From NCBI GenBank assembly GCA_022703425.1, contig JAKLDQ010000002.1:12876-76875 (forward strand): a stretch of 64,000 nucleotides of DNA. Direction: 5' to 3'. Below the pieces are notes generated by a model. That model had not been told where the DNA came from. It did no database searches and saw only the letters and a list, made by a program, of their open reading frames with translations. The position numbers were made by a program, and so were the translations under genes. Shown in pieces: positions 412 through 22,438 of this stretch. Each line of letters begins with the position of its first letter. Position 1 is the stretch's first letter. This DNA comes from Patescibacteria group bacterium. Lineage in GTDB: Bacteria; Patescibacteriota; Minisyncoccia; Minisyncoccales; Staskawiczbacteraceae.

Positions 412-2251
412 AAAAACAGCTTTTACAAGAACACTTTTTTTTGTCATTGCAGACATCGCTCTGCTGGCGTTTTCCATTTGGATGGCATTTTTTATCAGAT
501 TTGACGGGATCGTCCCGATGCAGTATTCCCAGGCAATATTGAAGGTTTGCATCCTGGCTTTTCTTATAATTATTCCGGTTTTTTATTTTTCAAAGCTTTA
601 CTCATTTTCATGGGCATATGTTTCTGCGAGCGATGCAATTGCTTTGTTCGAGGCGACCAGCGGCTCATTTCTTTTGCTGGGGCTTTTGGTATATGCTTTT
701 AAAATTTTTCCGGATTTTAACAACTTTCCCAGATCTGTTATTTTTATCAGTTTTTTTATCTTTTTTATCGGAACAGGGAGCATAAGATTTGCAAAAAGGG
801 TTTATGTGAGGGGTATTTTAAAAAGAAATAAAGGGTCTAAAACACGGACATTAATTGTGGGCGCGGGTGACGCCGGCGAACAAATTTTACGAAATATTCT
901 GCCCTCAAAAAGCAGTCCGTTTTTCCCGATCGGATTTGCAGATGACAGTCCGATGAAGCAAGGTATAATGATACACGGCTTTAAAGTTCTTGGAAAAATT
1001 TCCGAAATACCTGCCATTGTCAAAAAACACAGGGTCGAAGAATTAATTATTGCTCTTCCGACGGCCGGAAGTAGGACAATAAAAAATGCTGTTGATTTCG
1101 GGAGAAAAGCGGGAATTAAGAAAATTAAAATTGTTCCGCATATAAACGAAATAATTTCGGGAAAAATATCTTTAAAAACCCTGAAAGATGTTGAGGCAGA
1201 CGACCTTCTCGGCAGAGATCCGGTTTCTATCGACTCTAAAGAAATAGAAAATTTTATTAAAGGAAAAACAATTTTAGTTACGGGAGGGGCCGGATCCGTC
1301 GGATCGGAGCTTTGCCGGCAGATCATGAAGTTTGCTCCCAAAAATCTTTTAGTTTTGGATCAGGACGAAACAGGGATATTCAATATAATGAAAGAGCTTG
1401 AAGCGAAATTCAACGGAGACATAACTTCTTTCGTTTCCGACATTCGAGACAAGAAAAAGACAAAAGAGATTTTTCAGAAGTATAGGCCTAACATAATTTT
1501 TCATGCTGCCGCTTATAAACATGTTCCTCTTATGGAGGCGGATCCCGAAGAAGCGGTTAAGAATAATATTTTCGGCACAGAAATTCTTGCCGAGGCTGCA
1601 GTTGAGTTTGGAGCAGAAAAATTTATTTTTATTTCAACCGACAAAGCAGTTAATCCTACGTCAGTAATGGGCGCGACAAAAAGGATTTGCGAAATGGTTT
1701 GTCAAAGGTTTAACAGAGATGAGACGAAATTTATTTCCGTTCGTTTTGGAAATGTATTGGACAGCAGAGGAAGCGTTATCCCGATTTTTCGAGAACAAAT
1801 CAGAAAAGGGGGTCCGGTAACTGTTACTGATTCAAGAATGAAAAGATATTTTATGCTGATATCAGAGGCTTGCCTTTTAGTAATGCAGGCCGGAGCTATG
1901 GGAAAAGGCGGGGAAGTCTTCATTTTGGATATGGGAAAACCGGCGCATATTTTGGAACTTGCGAAAAAGATGATAAGCTTGTCTGGCCTGGAACCGGATA
2001 AAGATATTGCAATTGTGTTCAGCGGGCTGCGCCCCGGAGAAAAACTTTTCGAAGAAATACTCACTGCAGAAGAAGGAACGGTTGCAACAAAAAATCAAAA
2101 AATTTTTTCAGCGAAACTCTCAGATTCCAGTTCCGAAAGCCATTCGCAGAAGATGGAAAATTTAAGGACAGCTGTGTCTAACGGCGGTAAAGAAAAAATA
2201 ATATCTGCCCTCCGAGACCTTGTTCCTTGGTATTCTCCTGCGAAAGATTAA
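395..2251 (+). CDS. CapD/PglF/WbpM-like membrane-bound NDP-sugar dehydratase/epimerase (polysaccharide biosynthesis)
   Basis: Hydrophobic helices at the N-terminus. Two Rossmann motifs follow (LIVGAGDAGEQ and VTGGAGSVGSEL), plus AAAYKHVP catalytic region. 618 aa. Confidence 0.85.
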   Translation: MKNPFKKTAFTRTLFFVIADIALLAFSIWMAFFIRFDGIVPMQYSQAILKVCILAFLIIIPVFYFSKLYSFSWAYVSASDAIALFEATSGSFLLLGLLVYAFKIFPDFNNFPRSVIFISFFIFFIGTGSIRFAKRVYVRGILKRNKGSKTRTLIVGAGDAGEQILRNILPSKSSPFFPIGFADDSPMKQGIMIHGFKVLGKISEIPAIVKKHRVEELIIALPTAGSRTIKNAVDFGRKAGIKKIKIVPHINEIISGKISLKTLKDVEADDLLGRDPVSIDSKEIENFIKGKTILVTGGAGSVGSELCRQIMKFAPKNLLVLDQDETGIFNIMKELEAKFNGDITSFVSDIRDKKKTKEIFQKYRPNIIFHAAAYKHVPLMEADPEEAVKNNIFGTEILAEAAVEFGAEKFIFISTDKAVNPTSVMGATKRICEMVCQRFNRDETKFISVRFGNVLDSRGSVIPIFREQIRKGGPVTVTDSRMKRYFMLISEACLLVMQAGAMGKGGEVFILDMGKPAHILELAKKMISLSGLEPDKDIAIVFSGLRPGEKLFEEILTAEEGTVATKNQKIFSAKLSDSSSESHSQKMENLRTAVSNGGKEKIISALRDLVPWYSPAKD

Positions 2252-2316
2252 ACAAAGTCTTTTCTTTTTTCCACTTTTATATAAGATGGCGTTTGTGATA
2301 CAATAAAGCCAAATTT

Positions 2317-4032
2317 ATGAATAATAACCGAATTTACAAGAGAATCGCCCTGGCTTCGAGTGTTCTCCTTTTTTTATTGCTGGGGTGCGATGCCGGCGCG
2401 GCGATTGTGGGTGAAGCGGCAAATTTTTATGTTGACAGCAATTTTGACGCAAGTGAAAGAACTCAAGTTTCTGCAGTACTGTTGAAAAACAGCGGCCGGC
2501 TTTATTTTTATGTCGAGAAAGGATGGTGGGACTTACAACCCCAAGTTGAAAAAGACAAAATATCTGCAAACTTAGATGTTCTTGCCGGCGAGTTTGACAG
2601 CAAAATTTATCCGAGGCTTACGTCATTTTTTGGAAGCGAGTGGAAGCCCGGTGTTGATGGCGACAATAAAATAACAATTCTGTTTCACAACATGAAGGAG
2701 GACTCTGGCGGATATTTCAGGACAGCTGACGAATATGTAAAATTGCAGGTTCCGGATTCCAACGAAAGAGAAATGCTTTATCTCCCCGTAAATCAGGTTG
2801 GGAGTTTGCAGGTAAAAATTTTACTTGCCCACGAATTTGTTCATCTGATTACATTCAACCAGAAAAACAAAATTTCAGGTTCTGATGAAGAGGTTTGGTT
2901 AAATGAAATTCGAGCAGACTACTCGTCAACGATTCTTGGCTATGATGATATTTATTCCGGGAGCAATCTGCAAAAAAGGGTAAATGATTTTTTGCAGAAA
3001 CCGTCAGATCCCCTTACAGAATGGCAAAACACAAAATACGATTATGCTGTAATCAGTATGTTTGCCCATTATTTGGTGGACCATTATGGAATAAGTATTT
3101 TAACTGATTCGATTAAATTAAAATCAGCAGGAATAGAAAGTTTGAATGAAGTTTTGACAAGAAACGGCGCCGACGAAAAATTTGATGAAATCTACACAAA
3201 CTGGACGATAGCGCTTGTTGTAAATAATTGTTCAGGAGGAACCAAGTTTTGCTATCTTAGCGAGAACTTAAGCAAAATTAAAATAAATCCTGCAATAAAC
3301 TTTTTGCCAATGGTGGGAAGCAGCACCTTGTCTGTTGCGAATGTCGCAAAAAATTGGTCAGGTTCCTGGCAAAAATTTATTGGCGGCAGCGGTGATTTAA
3401 GGTTTGATTTTTCCAGTTTGAGCGCATTGAAATTCAAAGTCCCATACATAATTTTCGATAAAAATAACCAATACGCTGTCAAATATTTAGAACTGGATAA
3501 GGACTCAAAAGGAACTTTGGAAATCAAGAATTTTGGTTCTGAATACAGCTCGCTTGTAATAATTCCGACCCTTCAGACAAAAACATCCGGTTTTAACGGT
3601 TTAGAACTCACATATCCTTATACATTTACCGTTTCTGTCGCCGGAGGCACAAATCAGGAAGATCAAACTCTTATTGAAAAGCTGTTGGAACAGATAGATT
3701 CCCTAAAAAAACAGATAGCGCTTTTGCAGGCGCAGAAAGGGGGAAATGAAGAAAATGTTTGTTCTGAATTGAATAGAAATCTTTATATGGGAATAAACAA
3801 CAATAGCGATGTTCAATGTTTGCAGACATTTCTTAAGTTGCAGGGGCCTGATATCTATCCTGAGGGCCTGGTTACCGGCAATTTTGGTTCGCTTACCAGA
3901 AAAGCTGTTATGAAATTCCAGCAGAAGTATGCACCCGAGGTTTTGAAGCCGGCAGGGCTGTCGTATGCTACGGGATATGTTGGAGTTTTGACGAGAGCAA
4001 AAATTAATCAGCTTTTGAAAGGCGCTTTTTAG
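2317..4032 (+). CDS. Secreted/lipoprotein putative zinc metalloprotease with C-terminal peptidoglycan-binding domain
   Basis: Lipobox-like signal (LLFLLLGC) and an HExxH motif (AHEFVHL). A coiled-coil linker (LLEQIDSLKKQIALLQAQ) precedes a PG_binding_1-like C-terminus (GNFGSLTRKAVMKFQQKY). Confidence 0.55.
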   Translation: MNNNRIYKRIALASSVLLFLLLGCDAGAAIVGEAANFYVDSNFDASERTQVSAVLLKNSGRLYFYVEKGWWDLQPQVEKDKISANLDVLAGEFDSKIYPRLTSFFGSEWKPGVDGDNKITILFHNMKEDSGGYFRTADEYVKLQVPDSNEREMLYLPVNQVGSLQVKILLAHEFVHLITFNQKNKISGSDEEVWLNEIRADYSSTILGYDDIYSGSNLQKRVNDFLQKPSDPLTEWQNTKYDYAVISMFAHYLVDHYGISILTDSIKLKSAGIESLNEVLTRNGADEKFDEIYTNWTIALVVNNCSGGTKFCYLSENLSKIKINPAINFLPMVGSSTLSVANVAKNWSGSWQKFIGGSGDLRFDFSSLSALKFKVPYIIFDKNNQYAVKYLELDKDSKGTLEIKNFGSEYSSLVIIPTLQTKTSGFNGLELTYPYTFTVSVAGGTNQEDQTLIEKLLEQIDSLKKQIALLQAQKGGNEENVCSELNRNLYMGINNNSDVQCLQTFLKLQGPDIYPEGLVTGNFGSLTRKAVMKFQQKYAPEVLKPAGLSYATGYVGVLTRAKINQLLKGAF

Positions 4033-16260: not shown

Positions 16261-19068
16261 ATGACGCATCAAAGCGAACAACAACTTGAGAAAGTTTTAA
16301 TCAGTCAGCTGCAGAGGCTGGGTTTTTCGGTTGTTGAAATTAAAGATTCCGACAAATTGATTTCTAATCTACGTGGGCAGTTGGAAAAATTTAATCAAAC
16401 AAAGTTTTCTGATGACGAATTCCTAAAAATTTTAAATCACTTAAATAAGGGCGATAGATTTGAAAAAGCCAAAACTTTGCGTGATAGGTTTGTATTGAAA
16501 AGAGATGACGGAACCGACTTTTGGGTTAGGTTTTTTAATATGGATCAGTGGTGTAAAAATGAATATCAGGTGACTAATCAAATTACTCAGGTGGGAAGAT
16601 ATGAAAACCGATATGATGTGACCTTATTGATAAATGGATTACCATTGGTGCAAATAGAGCTCAAACGCCGCGGAGTGGAAATGAAAGAAGCATTCAATCA
16701 AATACAAAGGTACCAAAAACACACATATTCGGGAACGCTTTTTGAATATATTCAAATGTTTGTTATATCTAATGGGGTAAATACAAAGTATTTTTCCAAC
16801 AATCCAAAACAAACATTCGAACAGACTTTTTATTGGACTGACGTAAATAACAAAAAAATAACAAAATTAGACGAATTTGCAAATGAATTTTTGGCAAAAT
16901 GTAATGTTTCTGAAATGATTGCTGAGTTTATTGTCTTGGCTGAATATTACAAAATTCCAATGATAATGAGGCCATATCAGTACTATGCGGTGAAGGCTAT
17001 TGAGGAAAGAGTAAAGGAGTCAGGTAAAAATGGATATATCTGGCACACAACTGGCTCAGGTAAAACTTTAACATCTTTTAAAACTAGCCAAGTGCTTTCA
17101 AGAATCCCCGAAGTTAAGAAGGTGCTTTTTGTGGTAGATAGAAAGGACCTCGATATTCAAACAACAAAGGAATTCAATTCTTTTTCCGATGGTTCCGTTG
17201 ACGGCACAGACAATACTCACCACTTAGTCGACCAATTGAAAGATAAGAGAAAAACAAAACTGATTGTAACAACAATACAAAAATTAGATATAGCTATCAG
17301 CAGAGAGTCTTATATCAAACAATTTAAGTATTTAGAAAACGAGAAGGTTATAATCATCTTTGATGAATGTCATCGAAGTCAATTTGGGCAAACACACGCA
17401 AGAATTAAGTCATTTTTCAAGGGTGCGCAACTTTTTGGATTCACCGGAACCCCAATTTTTGCTGATAATAATGTTGGTGGTGTTACAACAAAAGACGTTT
17501 TTGGGGATTGCCTACACAAATACATAATAACAAACGCAATTTCTGATAATAATGTGCTTGGGTTTGCGGTGGAATATGTTGGAAAATACAGACAAAAAGC
17601 GCCAGATACTCTGGATGCAGATATATTTGCTGACGAATTGGTCGAAAACATTAACCGAGAAGAAATTTTTGCAAGCGATGATCGCCTAAATAAAATTGCA
17701 GATTATATTTTGGCAGATTGGAAGAGGAAAACAAAAAACGGCAAGTTTAATGCCATTTTTGCAGTTTCAAGTATTGATGTTTTAAAAAAGTATTATACTC
17801 TGCTAAAAAGCAAGAAATCAGAAAATTTCAGAATTGCTACAATTTTTACTTATCACGCCAACGAAGATGAGAGTTCAGACATGCTTGATATTGATGTGTT
17901 TGCAGACGAGGGGAAACCAGAAAATAAGTATTCGAGGGAATTTTTAGAAGATTGTATTAAGGACTACAATAAGCTCTATTCTACAAACTATTCTACAGAA
18001 CGTTTTTATGATTATTACAAAAATTTACAAAAAAGGATTAAGGATAAAGAAGTTGATTTGGTGCTGGTGGTAAATATGTTTTTGACCGGCTTTGATAGTC
18101 CAAGACTGAATACATTGTATGTAGACAAAAATCTGAGATATCACGGATTAATTCAAGCATATTCAAGAACAAACAGGCTTTTAAATTCAGATAAACCTCA
18201 CGGGAACATAATTTCTTTTAGAAATTTAAAGCAAGCAACTGACAAAGCCTTGGCTCTTTTTGGTGACGAAAATGCAAAAGAAGTCGTTTTTAAGAAGCCA
18301 TACGAAGATCAAAAGAGGGATTTTGAAAATAAGTTGAGGGAATTAAGAGAAAAAGTTCCTACTGTAGATTCTGTTGACAGCCTGCAGGGCGAAGAAGAAC
18401 GTGCAGAATTTGTTAAAACCTTTAGAGATTTATTACGCATTAAGGCTTCTTTAGAAACTTTTGCAGAGTTTTCCTTCAGCGACTTAGGTATTTCAGAACA
18501 GGAATTCTACGACTATCAAAGTAAATATTTAGATATTTACGAGGAAAGGAAAAATCATGATCGAGAGAAAGAATCTATTTTAGACCAAATTGATTTTGAG
18601 CTTGAATTAACAATCCGCGACGTTATTGATTATGATTATATCATACGATTAATAGCTGGGCTTAAAAACATTAGTTCCAAAGCTCTTCGAGAAAAGAAAA
18701 CGGAAGAAATTTTGCGGTTGTTTGATAGGGATGCAAAATTACGCAAGAAGAAGGATTTGATTAGAAAATTTATTGAAGAAAATCTTCCCAAAATTGGCAA
18801 AGCCGATGATGTTGAAAAAGCATTTGGCGAGTTTTGGGAAAGTGAACGTTCGAAAAATTTAAAAGATTTAGCAAAATCAGAAAGTATTCCGGTTGAAAGT
18901 ATAGAAAAGTTAATTGGAGAATATCTATATACACAAAAAATTCCTCATGGAGACGACATCATAGAAATGTTGCCAGAAGAAAAACGACCCAGAATTATGC
19001 AAAGGCAAGGAGTTGTTGACCGTATCAGGAAAGCAATTAGAAATATAATAGATATATTTGAGTGGTAA
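16261..19068 (+). CDS. hsdR: Type I restriction enzyme endonuclease/translocase subunit
   Basis: Walker A TTGSGKT, DEAD box FDECHRSQ, helicase C-domain; 935 aa. Confidence 0.9.
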   Translation: MTHQSEQQLEKVLISQLQRLGFSVVEIKDSDKLISNLRGQLEKFNQTKFSDDEFLKILNHLNKGDRFEKAKTLRDRFVLKRDDGTDFWVRFFNMDQWCKNEYQVTNQITQVGRYENRYDVTLLINGLPLVQIELKRRGVEMKEAFNQIQRYQKHTYSGTLFEYIQMFVISNGVNTKYFSNNPKQTFEQTFYWTDVNNKKITKLDEFANEFLAKCNVSEMIAEFIVLAEYYKIPMIMRPYQYYAVKAIEERVKESGKNGYIWHTTGSGKTLTSFKTSQVLSRIPEVKKVLFVVDRKDLDIQTTKEFNSFSDGSVDGTDNTHHLVDQLKDKRKTKLIVTTIQKLDIAISRESYIKQFKYLENEKVIIIFDECHRSQFGQTHARIKSFFKGAQLFGFTGTPIFADNNVGGVTTKDVFGDCLHKYIITNAISDNNVLGFAVEYVGKYRQKAPDTLDADIFADELVENINREEIFASDDRLNKIADYILADWKRKTKNGKFNAIFAVSSIDVLKKYYTLLKSKKSENFRIATIFTYHANEDESSDMLDIDVFADEGKPENKYSREFLEDCIKDYNKLYSTNYSTERFYDYYKNLQKRIKDKEVDLVLVVNMFLTGFDSPRLNTLYVDKNLRYHGLIQAYSRTNRLLNSDKPHGNIISFRNLKQATDKALALFGDENAKEVVFKKPYEDQKRDFENKLRELREKVPTVDSVDSLQGEEERAEFVKTFRDLLRIKASLETFAEFSFSDLGISEQEFYDYQSKYLDIYEERKNHDREKESILDQIDFELELTIRDVIDYDYIIRLIAGLKNISSKALREKKTEEILRLFDRDAKLRKKKDLIRKFIEENLPKIGKADDVEKAFGEFWESERSKNLKDLAKSESIPVESIEKLIGEYLYTQKIPHGDDIIEMLPEEKRPRIMQRQGVVDRIRKAIRNIIDIFEW

Positions 19069-19096: not shown

Positions 19097-19399
19097 ATGG
19101 ACCAAATTGTTTATTTTATAATCGGAGGAGTTGTGGGGATTGTTGCGGGGTATTTCTCTGCAAAAATGCTCAAAGACCAAAGCAATGAAAGGAAACCGCG
19201 GGTGGAACTGAAGGAAAAGAATAAGGAAAAAATTTTAAAACAGTTGAACGAGAGGAACAAGATCTCCAACGATGATGTTGAGAGGTTGCTTGGCGTGGCG
19301 GATTCTTCGGCAACGCGGTATTTAGAAGAACTGGAGAAAGAGGGGAAGATAAAGCAGGTTGGCAGAACCGGCCAGAGCGTTTTCTACCAAAAAAAGTAA
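19097..19399 (+). CDS. Small protein with N-terminal TM helix and C-terminal winged-HTH
   Basis: VYFIIGGVVGIVAGYFSA TM segment. wHTH-like SATRYLEELEKEGKIKQVGRTGQSVFY. Confidence 0.5.
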   Translation: MDQIVYFIIGGVVGIVAGYFSAKMLKDQSNERKPRVELKEKNKEKILKQLNERNKISNDDVERLLGVADSSATRYLEELEKEGKIKQVGRTGQSVFYQKK

Positions 19400-19567: not shown

Positions 19568-19596
19568 TTGACTATTTTGGAATAAGAGATATAATA
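19568..19596 (+). promoter_or_regulatory. Putative promoter of secD
   Basis: ttgact, 17 nt, ataata. Confidence 0.45.
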
Positions 19597-19627: not shown

Positions 19628-21049
19628 ATGGCGCAGAAATACTATATATTTATCGGTGTTTTGATATTAGCCGTAGTTGCGGGCATATTTGCTTATCCGA
19701 ACTATTTTAACAAAGGAGTAGATTTCTTAAATCAAAAATTCTCTTTCACGCTTCCGCACTTTCCTGACAGGCCTTATGTTTTGGGGCTTGATCTTCAGGG
19801 AGGTGTTAATTTGGTTTATCAGGCGGATTTGTCCAGCGTGCAGGATAAATCGGGGGCAATGGCTGGACTTCGCGATGTCATTGAAAGAAGGGTAAACACA
19901 TTCGGAGTTACAGAGCCGGTTGTCCAGATCCAGGGAGAAGACAGACTGCTTGTGGAACTGCCCGGAGTGACAGATGTCCAACAGGCGATTCAGATGATCG
20001 GGCAGACTCCGTATCTTGAATTTAGCGAACAGAGAACAGAGGACGAAACAAAACAAATTTTAGACAAGATGAAAGAGATACAGGATGCGCAGACAAAGAA
20101 AGAGGACATTTCAAAAATAAAAGACTGGCAGATTGCATTTCAGAATCCTTATTTCAAGCCGACAGATCTCACGGGAAAATATCTTTCGCGCGCGACAGTT
20201 GTGTTTGACCAGACAACTTACAAACCGCAGATCGAACTGCAGTTTAATTCGGACGGCGCAAAAGTTTTTGAAGAGCTGACAGCAAGAAACATTAAAAAAC
20301 CGATTGCGATATTTTTGGACGGATATTCCATTATAGACACGAGCGGAGACCAGAAGATTGATAATTCGGATATGTACGCTCCGATTGTGCAGGATAAAAT
20401 CACAGGAGGAAAAGCTGTCATTACAGGAGACATGAGCACAAAGGTTGCAAATGACATTGCAAGGAGGCTGAACTCCGGAGCATTGCCGGTTAAAATCGGC
20501 GCGCCGATTTCGCAGGAGACAGTCGGGCCAACTCTGGGCGCGTCTTCACTGCAGAAATCTTTAATCGCCGGTTTATTTGGACTTTTGGGAATTGTAATCT
20601 TTATGATTGCGTTTTACAGATTGCCCGGACTTCTGGCATCTGTTGCCCTGGTTATTTATGTTGCCATTACGCTGGCATTATTCAAGCTGATTCCTGTTAC
20701 TCTGACATTGGCCGGAATCGGCGGATTTATTCTTTCGATTGGAATGGCGGTGGACGCAAACATTTTGATTTTCGCCAGAATGAAAGAAGAATTGAAACAG
20801 GGAAAGGGAACTGCAGAAGCGATTGACGAAGGGTTCAAAAGAGCATGGCCGTCGATCCGCGACAGCAACCTGAACTCTCTGATTGTCTGCGCTATTCTGT
20901 TTACTTTTGCAACATCGTTTATCAAAGGTTTTGCGCTGACTTTGAGCCTGGGTATTATTGTAAGCATGCTTTCTGCTATCTTTATTACAAGGATTTTCCT
21001 GCAGGTGTTTGTGGGCAGATGGGCTGAAAAAATAAAGTGGATATTGTAG
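19628..21049 (+). CDS. secD: Protein-export membrane protein SecD
   Basis: N-terminal TM, periplasmic domain (LGLDLQGGV) and C-terminal 5-TM block with GMAVDANILIFARMKEE. Confidence 0.9.
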   Translation: MAQKYYIFIGVLILAVVAGIFAYPNYFNKGVDFLNQKFSFTLPHFPDRPYVLGLDLQGGVNLVYQADLSSVQDKSGAMAGLRDVIERRVNTFGVTEPVVQIQGEDRLLVELPGVTDVQQAIQMIGQTPYLEFSEQRTEDETKQILDKMKEIQDAQTKKEDISKIKDWQIAFQNPYFKPTDLTGKYLSRATVVFDQTTYKPQIELQFNSDGAKVFEELTARNIKKPIAIFLDGYSIIDTSGDQKIDNSDMYAPIVQDKITGGKAVITGDMSTKVANDIARRLNSGALPVKIGAPISQETVGPTLGASSLQKSLIAGLFGLLGIVIFMIAFYRLPGLLASVALVIYVAITLALFKLIPVTLTLAGIGGFILSIGMAVDANILIFARMKEELKQGKGTAEAIDEGFKRAWPSIRDSNLNSLIVCAILFTFATSFIKGFALTLSLGIIVSMLSAIFITRIFLQVFVGRWAEKIKWIL

Positions 21050-21050
21050 C

Positions 21051-21083
21051 TACGAAATACGAAATGATACGAATATACGAATA
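21051..21083. repeat. Array of 4 x TACGAA (left arm of inverted repeat flanking GxxExxY gene)
   Basis: tacgaaatacgaaatgatacgaatatacgaata. Motif offsets are 0, 7, 17 and 25. Confidence 0.85.
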
Positions 21084-21103
21084 AAAATTGTAGCAAAATT
21101 ATT

Positions 21104-21505
21104 ATGAAAAGCTTAGTCAGAAAAGATTTAATTTATCCTGAACTATGCTATCAGATAATTGGAAAATTATTCGTTGTTTGGGGAAAACTGGGTTTTGGGC
21201 ATAAGGAAAAAATTTACCAGAATGCGATTGAACAGGAGTTGAAAGATTCTGAAATTAATTATGAAAGGGAGCTGCCAGTCAGGATCAAATACAATGATAA
21301 TCTGATTGGAATGTATTACTTTGATTTTCTGGTTGAAAATAAAATAGTACTGGAAACAAAAGTTAGAAATTACTTTGCTAAAAAAGATATTGAGCAGTTA
21401 TATTCCTATCTTAAGGCAAAGAATTTAAAGCTTGGAATAATCGCGCATTTCACAAATAGCGGAGTAAAGTTCAAGAGAATTGTAAATATTAATAATAATT
21501 CGTAA
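21104..21505 (+). CDS. GxxExxY-family protein (PD-(D/E)XK nuclease-like fold)
   Basis: GHKEKIY motif within GFGHKEKIYQNAIEQEL. DFLVENKIVLETK core. 133 aa. Confidence 0.75.
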   Translation: MKSLVRKDLIYPELCYQIIGKLFVVWGKLGFGHKEKIYQNAIEQELKDSEINYERELPVRIKYNDNLIGMYYFDFLVENKIVLETKVRNYFAKKDIEQLYSYLKAKNLKLGIIAHFTNSGVKFKRIVNINNNS

Positions 21506-21531
21506 ATTCGTAAAAAATTCGTAATTCGTAT
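21499..21531. repeat. Array of 4 x TTCGTA (right arm, reverse complement of left array)
   Basis: ttcgtaaattcgtaaaaaattcgtaattcgta. After reverse complement the motif offsets are 0, 7, 18 and 26, mirroring the left arm. Confidence 0.85.
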
Positions 21532-21535
21532 AAAC

Positions 21536-22438
21536 ATGAATTTTCAATTTACAAAGTATTCAAAGATCTACTATATTATTTCGGGGGTTCTCATGGCCGT
21601 TTCGATTGCCGCTTTGGTTATGTATGGCCTGAAATTTGGAATCGAATTCAACGGCGGAAGCAATATGCAGGTTGAATTTGAAAACAGGCCGACAAACGAG
21701 GCAATCAGGGAAAAACTTTCGGGCATCGACCTTGGCGAAGTGATTGTAAAACCTACGGGAGAAAAAGGCGCTGTATTGCAGTTTCGCGGAGTTGAAGAAT
21801 CCACGCACCAGCAGATTTTGTCAAAACTGAACGAGCTTTCCGCCACTACCGAAAAGAGCTTTCAGTTTATCGGCCCCTCGATCGGGCAGGAATTGAGAAA
21901 TAAGACAATTATTGCAATTGCTTTGGCCTTACTGGCGATTACCTTATATATAGCGTTTGCCTTTAGAAAGGTTTCGAAGCCCGTTGCTTCGTGGAAATAC
22001 GGAATTACCTCTCTTATTGCTTTGGTGCATGACATTGTTATCCCTTTGGGGGTGTTTGCCGTATTGGGCAAATTTTATGATGCCGAAATCACAATCCCGA
22101 TTATTGCCGCTTTGCTGACAGTGCTCGGATTTTCGGTGCACGATACTATTGTTATTTTCGACAGAATCAGGGAAAACATTTTAAGAAGGGGAATGGGCAA
22201 CTTTTCGGAAACGGTTGACTGGAGCTTGAACCAGACAATCGGCAGATCGTTAAGCACCGTTTTCAGCACGTTGCTTGCCCTTCTTGCAATATTCTTCTTC
22301 GGCGGAGAAACTCTTAAATACTTTTCTTTGGCGCTGATTATTGGTATTACATCCGGAGCTTATTCTTCGATATTCATAGCTAGCCCCCTGCTTGTCTCGT
22401 GGCGGGCGTGGGACGAGAGAAAGTCCTCAAAAAAGTAG
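21536..22438 (+). CDS. secF: Protein-export membrane protein SecF
   Basis: SecF layout: N-terminal TM, small periplasmic domain, 5-TM block with HDTIVIFDRIREN. Confidence 0.9.
   Translation: MNFQFTKYSKIYYIISGVLMAVSIAALVMYGLKFGIEFNGGSNMQVEFENRPTNEAIREKLSGIDLGEVIVKPTGEKGAVLQFRGVEESTHQQILSKLNELSATTEKSFQFIGPSIGQELRNKTIIAIALALLAITLYIAFAFRKVSKPVASWKYGITSLIALVHDIVIPLGVFAVLGKFYDAEITIPIIAALLTVLGFSVHDTIVIFDRIRENILRRGMGNFSETVDWSLNQTIGRSLSTVFSTLLALLAIFFFGGETLKYFSLALIIGITSGAYSSIFIASPLLVSWRAWDERKSSKK

Follow-up and report, generated by a model that had tools for sequence, protein, structure and literature searches.

A GxxExxY nuclease gene between inverted hexamer arrays at a patescibacterial secD-secF junction: a likely copy of a miniature mobile-element family

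In the 64,000-nucleotide stretch of DNA from a Patescibacteria group bacterium analysed here (GenBank assembly GCA_022703425.1, contig JAKLDQ010000002.1, positions 12,876 to 76,875 of the forward strand; designated "the window" in the following), the genes secD and secF are separated by a gap of 486 nucleotides (nt) which accommodates a single open reading frame (ORF). This ORF encodes a predicted nuclease of the GxxExxY family and is enclosed by two mutually inverted arrays, each of which contains the hexamer TACGAA four times. We consider it likely that the segment from position 21049 to 21532 belongs, as a single copy, to a family of miniature mobile elements in which a promoter-less gene for a GxxExxY nuclease of about 130 amino acids (aa) is placed between arms made up of clade-specific hexamers. 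A first-pass annotation of the sequence had already proposed a compact mobile or selfish cassette with terminal inverted repeats of iterated hexamers, and had suggested inspecting the secD-secF junctions of relatives as well as the surroundings of other GxxExxY genes. The junctions turned out to be empty in all 15 relatives recovered, while TACGAA or closely related arrays surround homologous GxxExxY genes at many loci, and both observations support the proposal. The features of the locus are the following:

21049-21532, + strand: whole inserted element, about 484 base pairs (bp), not present at the secD-secF junction of 15 relatives
21049-21081, + strand: left arm, GC followed by TACGAA-A-TACGAA-ATGA-TACGAA-TA-TACGAA, an exact match to the family consensus
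21082-21103, + strand: 22-nt leader from the left arm to the ATG, TAAAAATTGTAGCAAAATTATT, without a Shine-Dalgarno-like motif
21104-21505, + strand: GxxExxY / PDDEXK_3 gene encoding a predicted nuclease of 133 aa (G32-H-K-E35-K-I-Y38; catalytic D74, E84 and K86)
21499-21532, + strand: right arm, TTCGTA-AA-TTCGTA-AAAAA-TTCGTA-A-TTCGTA-TA, the mirror of the left arm
19628-21049, + strand: secD, upstream host gene (473 aa; Pfam SecD_1st, SecDF_P1_head and SecD_SecF_C)
21047-21049, + strand: secD stop codon TAG, whose final G doubles as the G of the terminal GC of the element
21536-22438, + strand: secF, downstream host gene (300 aa; Pfam SecD_SecF_C, E 3.8e-55, and Sec_GG), with its ATG 3 nt past the element
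19568-19595, + strand: promoter-like site ahead of secD, TTGACT-16-TATAAT (11 of 12 match)

Within the left array the copies of TACGAA start at positions 21051, 21058, 21068 and 21076 (offsets 0/7/17/25), within the right one those of TTCGTA start at 21499, 21507, 21518 and 21525 (offsets 0/8/19/26). The spacings thus amount to 7/10/8 on the left and, read as the reverse complement, to 7/11/8 on the right, and this agreement in register identifies the two arrays as a true inverted repeat. The first right-hand TTCGTA shares bases with the stop codon of the nuclease gene (TCG TAA), and the last one is separated from the ATG of secF by 5 nt, or by 3 nt if the trailing TA is counted, so that the junction in the window reads ...atattgTAG[C TACGAA ... 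TTCGTA TA]aacATGaattttcaa. The right arm is slightly decayed in that both short spacers are off consensus and the terminal GC is changed to TA. Coordinates and Pfam matches agree with the first-pass annotation as far as one GxxExxY gene and inverted fourfold arrays in the secD-secF gap are concerned, and its assignment of GxxExxY proteins to a PD-(D/E)XK-like family is borne out by matches above cut-off to both PF13366 and TIGR04256; its left offsets were correct, and its right offsets, given as 0/7/18/26, have to be replaced by those stated above.

As a mere word, TACGAA is not enriched in the window, where it occurs 31 times compared to an expected 25.8 +/- 4.9, eight of the 31 occurrences being located in the two arrays. 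The arrays are, however, the sole sites of the window at which any non-trivial hexamer is present in at least four non-overlapping copies within 34 nt, and a cluster of this kind, irrespective of the hexamer, was found in just one of 300 dinucleotide-matched simulated windows. The counts and the simulations taken together exclude a chance origin of the arrays.

A metagenome scan with SecF of the window yielded 15 loci having both secD and secF, the products of which are 54-83% (SecD) and 44-77% (SecF) identical to those of the window. At all 15 of them the two genes are spaced by merely about 2-45 nt, and neither arrays, nor a GxxExxY gene, nor a hairpin is present at the junction; that of locus L107, for example, reads ...gtgcttTAAttATGaattttcaa (L and P numbers are our handles for compared loci and proteins). 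The identical GxxExxY protein is encoded on six metagenome contigs on which the arrays are present as far as each contig reaches and on which the fully covered neighbours are secD upstream and/or secF downstream; JGI 3300010429 and 3300009776 and ENA ERZ27257455, ERZ27257456, ERZ795054 and ERZ761563 contain the identical element. The six identical contigs in conjunction with the 15 empty relatives indicate that the insertion is fixed in this lineage and missing from the sampled relatives.

Homologues of the window protein number in the hundreds. The closest of them are 58-71% identical to it and, in the few cases with a name, bear the labels Patescibacteria or Liptonbacteria, besides one labelled "Woesearchaeota". 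From a scan of one genome per species, which provided 186 confirmed relatives, the best 80 were kept; nearly all look patescibacterial by title or context. Two of the loci, L008 and L007, exhibit GCTACGAAATACGAA-N5-TACGAATATACGAA plus its mirror image around proteins which are 67-68% identical to that of the window. In L008 the homologue is situated between the genes of a T2SSE ATPase and T2SSF, with gcTACGAAaTACGAAtttttTACGAAtaTACGAAtaTACGAA and TTCGTAtaTTCGTAttttTTCGTAtTTCGTAgc as its flanks, while in L007 the arms enclose two ORFs between genes of the NADH-dehydrogenase 51K type and of an Fe-hydrogenase. The ORF accompanying the GxxExxY gene in L007 (2603-3016, between the left arm and the GxxExxY gene) encodes 137 aa with a hydrophobic N-terminus and has no match in Pfam or PHROG; its presence means that the arms can carry cargo.

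For a quantitative assessment of the association between gene and arrays, free-standing copies with both flanks were counted as positive if one hexamer was present two or more times in the 90 nt upstream and its reverse complement two or more times downstream. Such inverted arrays accompany 53 of the 66 free-standing homologues compared to 5 of the 1,320 control placements made within these loci, and 33 of the 66 reach three or more occurrences. Altogether, 119 arms can be parsed into one layout, (2-4-nt terminal extension)-H-N1-H-N3-6-H-N2-H, H being the hexamer, in which a lone A or T makes up the first spacer; the inner one is TA in 79 arms. Each arm thus comprises about 33 nt with four hexamer copies and is mirrored on the other side of the gene, the inverted repeat reaching 2-4 nt past the hexamers (GC/GC, CTC/GAG or TCTT/AAGA). 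The candidate explanation of the arrays as fortuitous low-complexity intergenic sequence is refuted by this association, the word counts and the simulations, and we assign virtually no probability to it.

The elements occupy the spacer from one gene's stop codon to the start codon of the following gene, at a typical distance of 33-70 nt from either, and almost always share the strand with both neighbours. Judged from Pfam or precomputed domains, the junctions include those of ribosomal protein S7 and elongation factor G (EF-G), PheS and PheT, the small and large subunits of NiFe-hydrogenase, T2SSE and T2SSF, an unidentified gene and fructose-bisphosphate aldolase, as well as secD and secF. Members of the clade of the window protein (identity of at least 52%) are encoded at no fewer than 15 different junctions. 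A homing-type element in the strict sense, i.e. one with a single conserved target, is not supported, as the sites are many and unrelated. Copies with 80-89% identity occur at different junctions (e.g. L050/L056, L043/L047 and L032/L038), and such cross-junction copies resemble each other as much as, or more than, same-junction copies from different genomes do, which argues for movement and not for vertical descent alone.

The hexamers encountered are TACGAA, with two subtypes distinguished by terminal extension, TACAAA, TACTAA, TACGGA and TACAGA, along with the GC-richer ACAGAC/GCGGAC. TACAAA, TACTAA and both TACGAA types map to protein subclades, and protein identity is higher within than between types for TACGAA-I, TACAAA, TACTAA and TACGAA-II; judged from these sequence comparisons, the identity of the hexamer tends to follow the protein subclade. 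The genome UBA12116 harbours elements of both the TACTAA (L047) and the TACGAA type (L059), whose proteins are 58% identical to each other, yet 81% and 77% identical, respectively, to proteins of the same type from other genomes. The coexistence of two types in one genome, each with its own type of protein, argues for a hexamer reader encoded by the element and not by the host. It is above all the arms themselves that argue for a trans-acting reader of the repeat unit, since each contains four identical units which change in concert, beyond what a helix would need. The hexamers may be regarded as putative binding sites for the encoded protein, a role which is indirectly supported by the pairing of type with subclade and by the situation in UBA12116. 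Concerning the ends of the elements, the upstream gene of type-I elements mostly terminates with TAG, which abuts or overlaps the terminal GC (TAGC or TAG-GC). The stop codon of secD is TAA in most relatives of the window shown, and the element may create or supply the upstream stop codon.

The protein encoded in the window matches PF13366 (PDDEXK_3) with an E value of 6.6e-28 (97.9 bits, cut-off 22) and TIGR04256 (GxxExxY) with an E value of 4.8e-29 (101.1 bits, cut-off 35). In an alignment of 24 sequences with a mean identity of about 65%, the G32-x-x-E35-x-x-Y38 motif including E35 as well as D74, E84 and K86 of the D...ExK signature are invariant. Altogether, 30 alignment columns are invariant among the family sequences, and the alignment reads as clear purifying selection on the nuclease ORF. 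No solved structure is detectable for the family by sequence. The AlphaFold model (predicted local distance difference test score 89.9) possesses an alpha/beta core whose best neighbours among solved structures are Cas4 SSO0001, lambda-exonuclease-like enzymes, Hjc and tRNA-splicing endonucleases (EndA), which suggests, on the level of a predicted fold, that the window protein is a minimal PD-(D/E)XK nuclease. Searches of PADLOC gave no defence-system match apart from a noise-level one to Csn2, and those of PHROGs merely a family of unknown function and a weak "endonuclease" match. The family is very large: among the representatives of clusters formed at 50% identity, 12,454 match with E <= 1e-3 and 3,104 with E <= 1e-10. 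Two GxxExxY domains in tandem within about 250-280 aa are present in about 20 of the 150 best-matching representatives (e.g. P0136 and P0148), which suggests that the unit works as a dimer. A survey of PD-(D/E)XK proteins from 2012 gives "Unknown" as the family's function and notes multiple transfers between lineages (PMC3424549).

Beside copies with a gene, there are gene-less ones. On a Staskawiczbacteria contig (L024/L120), four neighbouring spacers of a pilus operon carry arm-loop-arm elements of about 80-85 nt whose arms are identical to those around a GxxExxY gene in the adjacent spacer; other spacers of this contig contain hairpins built from different hexamers. Comparable pairs without a gene are present in L033, L039, L055 and L071, and in L033, L055 and L071, as in L024/L120, gene-less copies share their ends with a gene-bearing element of the same genome. 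The gene-less copies fold as hairpins of at least 30 bp with -37 to -55 kcal/mol and z scores of about -10. Two of them (L120, 8807-8892 and 11682-11765) have identical arms and nearly identical loops, and differ completely in the internal 4-5-nt spacers of both arms (TTTTT/CTTGA vs TAGT/GGTAA). This difference is hard to obtain by point mutation and may mark the point of cleavage or rejoining.

A sister clade of GxxExxY proteins is inserted in frame in RecG (between helicase motifs II and III), GatB and transketolase and, furthermore, in an EF-Tu-type GTPase, GT1 and GT2 glycosyltransferases and an alpha/beta hydrolase:

L084-L087, L090-L096 and L099 (e.g. L085, ORF 1178-3757): in-frame copies; proteins P0263, P0267, P0249, P0246, P0211, P0252 and P0226

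The inserts are bordered by T-Q-T-D/N-A-D repeats on the N-terminal and by S-A-x-S-Q-R repeats on the C-terminal side, and these peptides are the translation of inverted arrays, ACAGAC/GCGGAC upstream and GTCCGC downstream. Apart from this, direct arrays of about four ACGCGGA(C) units are present in frame in PheS (L048, 1876-1950) and EF-G (L028, 2067-2159), where they encode TNAD/THAD-type peptides without a nuclease domain. Such arrays may represent scars, or else in-frame copies lacking the gene.

With regard to expression, a scan from the secD stop codon to the ATG of the cassette revealed no promoter-like site, and between secD and secF no terminator-like one was found. The lack of such sites of its own along with the co-orientation of the gene indicates expression by read-through, and the strong promoter-like site at 19568-19595 likely drives transcription through the cassette. 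In the minimum-free-energy fold of a 506-nt RNA (z score -4.2) the structure is closed by arm-arm pairing; a search of 20800-21800 against Rfam gave no match.

On the basis of these observations we propose that the nuclease would bind the hexamers of both arms, probably in the form of a dimer or a larger oligomer and either on synapsed duplex ends or on a hairpin or cruciform formed by the arms. It would then introduce DNA breaks by which the element is moved or copied, host repair or replication completing the process; excision, repair-mediated copying or homing of the gene into existing hairpins are candidate routes. Gene-less copies would be mobilised in trans, in parallel to the proposed dependence of repetitive extragenic palindromic (REP) sequences and REPINs on REP-associated tyrosine transposases (RAYTs). 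The gene itself would be expressed by read-through from the secD promoter, and pairing of the arms within the mRNA would bring the secD stop and the secF start close to each other, which may limit polar damage to the operon. The copy in the window, whose ORF is intact and conserved while its right arm shows slight decay, may be ageing at its present site, and the loss of the terminal GC together with the off-consensus short spacers means that it may no longer be mobile. Within the leader of this copy, positions 21088-21103 read TTGTAGCAAAATTATT plus ATG, similar to the right end and start context found in other elements (TTCGTAGCAAAATT plus ATG in L008). An earlier arm, or recombination between elements, may have left the motif TTGTAGCAAAATTATT behind.

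Several points weigh against the interpretation as a mobile element with a cognate nuclease. The right arm in the window departs from the consensus. The 64-kb window contains no second GxxExxY gene, no further TACGAA array, no gene-less copy and no comparable long inverted repeat, and with one copy and zero gene-less ones recent activity in this genome lacks support. With the nearest homologue 71% identical, no recent donor or second copy is known either. Around 46 paired elements no consistent direct repeat indicative of a target-site duplication was found. A certain co-variation of arms and protein is produced by linked descent alone, and the TACGGA type is not monophyletic. Finally, no stand-alone PD-(D/E)XK protein is known to be an established transposase, and binding and cleavage of the arms are putative activities of the nuclease. 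As to target-site duplications, a duplication of TA as a general rule was considered and rejected, as it fits the site in the window but would fuse the flanking genes in L007.

Other explanations share part of the evidence. The gene might home into the loops of pre-existing gene-less hairpins, cutting being followed by repair copying with the 33-nt arms as homology. Exactly this arrangement appears in L024/L120, where the gene occupies the place of the 16-28-nt loop present in the four gene-less neighbours with identical arms, and the degenerate right-end-like motif in the leader of the window element would fit as well. Since no hairpin exists at secD-secF in any of the 15 relatives, however, arms and gene must have arrived there together or in quick succession, and the spread of the hairpins themselves is left unexplained. 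We regard this course of events as rather unlikely. A lower probability still is given by us to the arms being mainly an RNA device, be it for processing by RNase III, for translational coupling of secD and secF or as substrate of an RNA endonuclease in an intron-like excision, in which case the hexamers would not be DNA recognition sites. The strong predicted long-range stem, the strong hairpins of gene-less copies, the co-orientation with the host operon, the lack of a promoter-like site in the stretch from the secD stop to the ATG and the presence of tRNA-splicing endonucleases among the structural neighbours all are in line with such a device. A helix, though, needs pairwise complementarity only and not one hexamer repeated four times which changes as a set between elements, and the central 3-6-nt spacers are often non-complementary. 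Moreover, the invariant D...ExK, a signature of metal-dependent DNA nucleases, is distinct from the catalytic set of EndA, and in-frame copies keep the ORF open through arms and gene, which would be needless if they were spliced out. Neither does Rfam provide a match, nor is the dispersal to many loci accounted for. A role of the RNA can, in any case, coexist with the mobile-element explanation.

That the gene is a domesticated housekeeping or defence nuclease, the arrays being operators of a host regulator, appears very improbable to us. Purifying selection, as reflected by the 30 invariant columns, and the sheer size of the family with its 12,454 cluster representatives would suit a gene of this kind; its absence from this site in relatives, its occurrence at many unrelated junctions and in the interior of coding genes, the differing hexamer types in one genome and the lack of a PADLOC match beyond noise would not, and an operator would have no promoter-like site to act upon. 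Interpretations as CRISPR, TIGR, iteron, integron-cassette or type III toxin-antitoxin systems were also tried and rejected, given units of 6 nt with 1-6-nt spacers, the lack of attC, integrase or partner gene and the fact that the arms are complementary to each other and not self-palindromic.

A few observations concern the surroundings and the periphery of the family. Directly upstream of secD and outside the element, the window encodes an HsdR-like type I restriction R subunit (935 aa, 16261-19068) and a small helix-turn-helix protein (19097-19399), both assigned by precomputed Pfam matches on L001, a contig identical to this one. Elements that equal those of Patescibacteria nearly or fully are also present on contigs with the label "Woesearchaeota archaeon" (L028 vs L030 and L025 vs L029). 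L030 possesses bacterial-type S7 and EF-G and is identical to a Jorgensenbacteria contig. The archaeal labels give the impression of binning errors and not of a transfer between domains. Four distant homologues are found in plasmid records, with flank repeats which are suggestive and an architecture which is not the same. A paired CGCGGAT array lies near the distant GxxExxY gene of a Gemmatirosa plasmid (L119), a single 11-12-nt inverted repeat, CACACGGATTCG, near that of a Treponema plasmid (L118) and direct repeats near that of a Fusobacteria plasmid (L117), while TACGAA/TACGGA arrays accompany a distant gene in Methylomirabilis (L083). The repeats near distant GxxExxY genes beyond Patescibacteria have an ACGGA/ACGAA-like core, and, going by these repeats, the association between gene and repeat may be family-wide. 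Phage records contain no homologue of the window protein. A scan of viral contigs for the pattern TACGAAATACGAA-N3-8-TACGAA produced only (TACGAAA)n heptamer microsatellites without a GxxExxY gene, which are unrelated.

More generally, we put forward, tentatively and with somewhat more doubt than conviction, that GxxExxY/PDDEXK_3 proteins serve as dedicated nucleases for miniature mobile elements of prokaryotes which form a very widespread class, so far unrecognised, and the PD-(D/E)XK counterpart of REP/RAYT. If true, this class would be bounded by inverted clade-specific hexamer arrays, colonise operon junctions and spawn REP-like gene-less hairpins, while members of a sister lineage would insert in frame in housekeeping proteins with their arms translated as linkers, and its nuclease would be the first stand-alone PD-(D/E)XK "transposase". 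Provided that the nuclease mobilises the arms, a new enzymatic class of bacterial mobile element and a second, independent instance of the REP/RAYT life-style would result. The reproducible cognate DNA partner leads to a concrete hypothesis for PF13366/TIGR04256, namely specific binding and cleavage of TACGAA-type arrays. In Patescibacteria, with their reduced genomes and tiny intergenic spacers, the elements may account for many intergenic hairpins as well as for "insertion domains" in RecG, GatB, transketolase and translation GTPases. Annotation is concerned, too, since the arrays are easily mis-called low-complexity and in-frame copies inflate protein lengths. In the open-access text searched, GxxExxY, PDDEXK_3, PF13366 and TIGR04256 receive incidental mentions only, and neither these publications nor those on the candidate phyla radiation (CPR) or Patescibacteria in connection with MITEs (transposable elements of the miniature inverted-repeat kind), REPs or nucleases describe this architecture.

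Several known systems resemble the element in part. The ends of Tn7 and Mu and the AAACGG hexamers of maize Ac/Ds are iterated subterminal binding sites, and non-autonomous MITE derivatives of such elements exist. Common to them and to the element described here are several inverted copies of one short motif at both ends and the occurrence of non-autonomous deletion derivatives. The present element, in contrast, has no DDE, serine, tyrosine or HUH transposase, its sole ORF in the window being PDDEXK_3, measures merely about 0.45-0.5 kb, shows no target-site duplication and has no promoter-like site from the upstream stop codon to its ATG. Free-standing homing genes are exemplified by the seg and mob genes of phage T4 with their "intronless homing", and I-Ssp6803I is a homing enzyme of the PD-(D/E)XK type. 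Like these, the window element is a small endonuclease ORF wedged between conserved neighbours and present or absent among relatives, with a fold known from homing enzymes; they have one conserved target and no terminal arrays, however, whereas here the sites are many and unrelated and gene and arms move together. Rickettsia palindromic elements (RPEs) and intragenic REPs are likewise palindromic selfish elements tolerated in frame in housekeeping proteins. RPEs are, in contrast, gene-free and have no known dedicated enzyme, while in-frame copies here comprise a whole nuclease domain with translated arm "linkers". ORF-carrying intervening sequences of rRNA and hairpin MITEs of the Correia/ERIC type are characterised by a long stem, likely sensitivity to RNase III and effects on the expression of neighbours. 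In them as in the present element, where the stem is predicted, a long stem encloses the insert in the transcript, but here the sites are operon junctions in mRNA, the arms are hexamer arrays and a PD-(D/E)XK nuclease is encoded.

A parallel in logic is offered by REP/RAYT (REPtrons, and TIRtrons with TIRYT), although the likeness is one of functional analogy only. In both cases a single nuclease-type gene lies amid its own cognate inverted repeats, short gene-less palindromic derivatives reside in operon spacers where they are probably transcribed as hairpins, and the repeat sequence co-varies with the clade of the enzyme. The enzyme here is a PD-(D/E)XK nuclease of about 130 aa in place of a Y1 HUH transposase, the hosts are Patescibacteria, and four hexamers in a 7/10-11/8 register take the place of one GTAG-tagged palindrome. 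REPs, too, are found inside genes, and the logic of an enzyme plus its cognate repeat has been proposed for them (PMC3733652). The general logic, in which cognate inverted repeats enclose a nuclease gene and non-autonomous derivatives exist, is known; new are the enzyme family, the architecture of the arms and the in-frame sister lineage.

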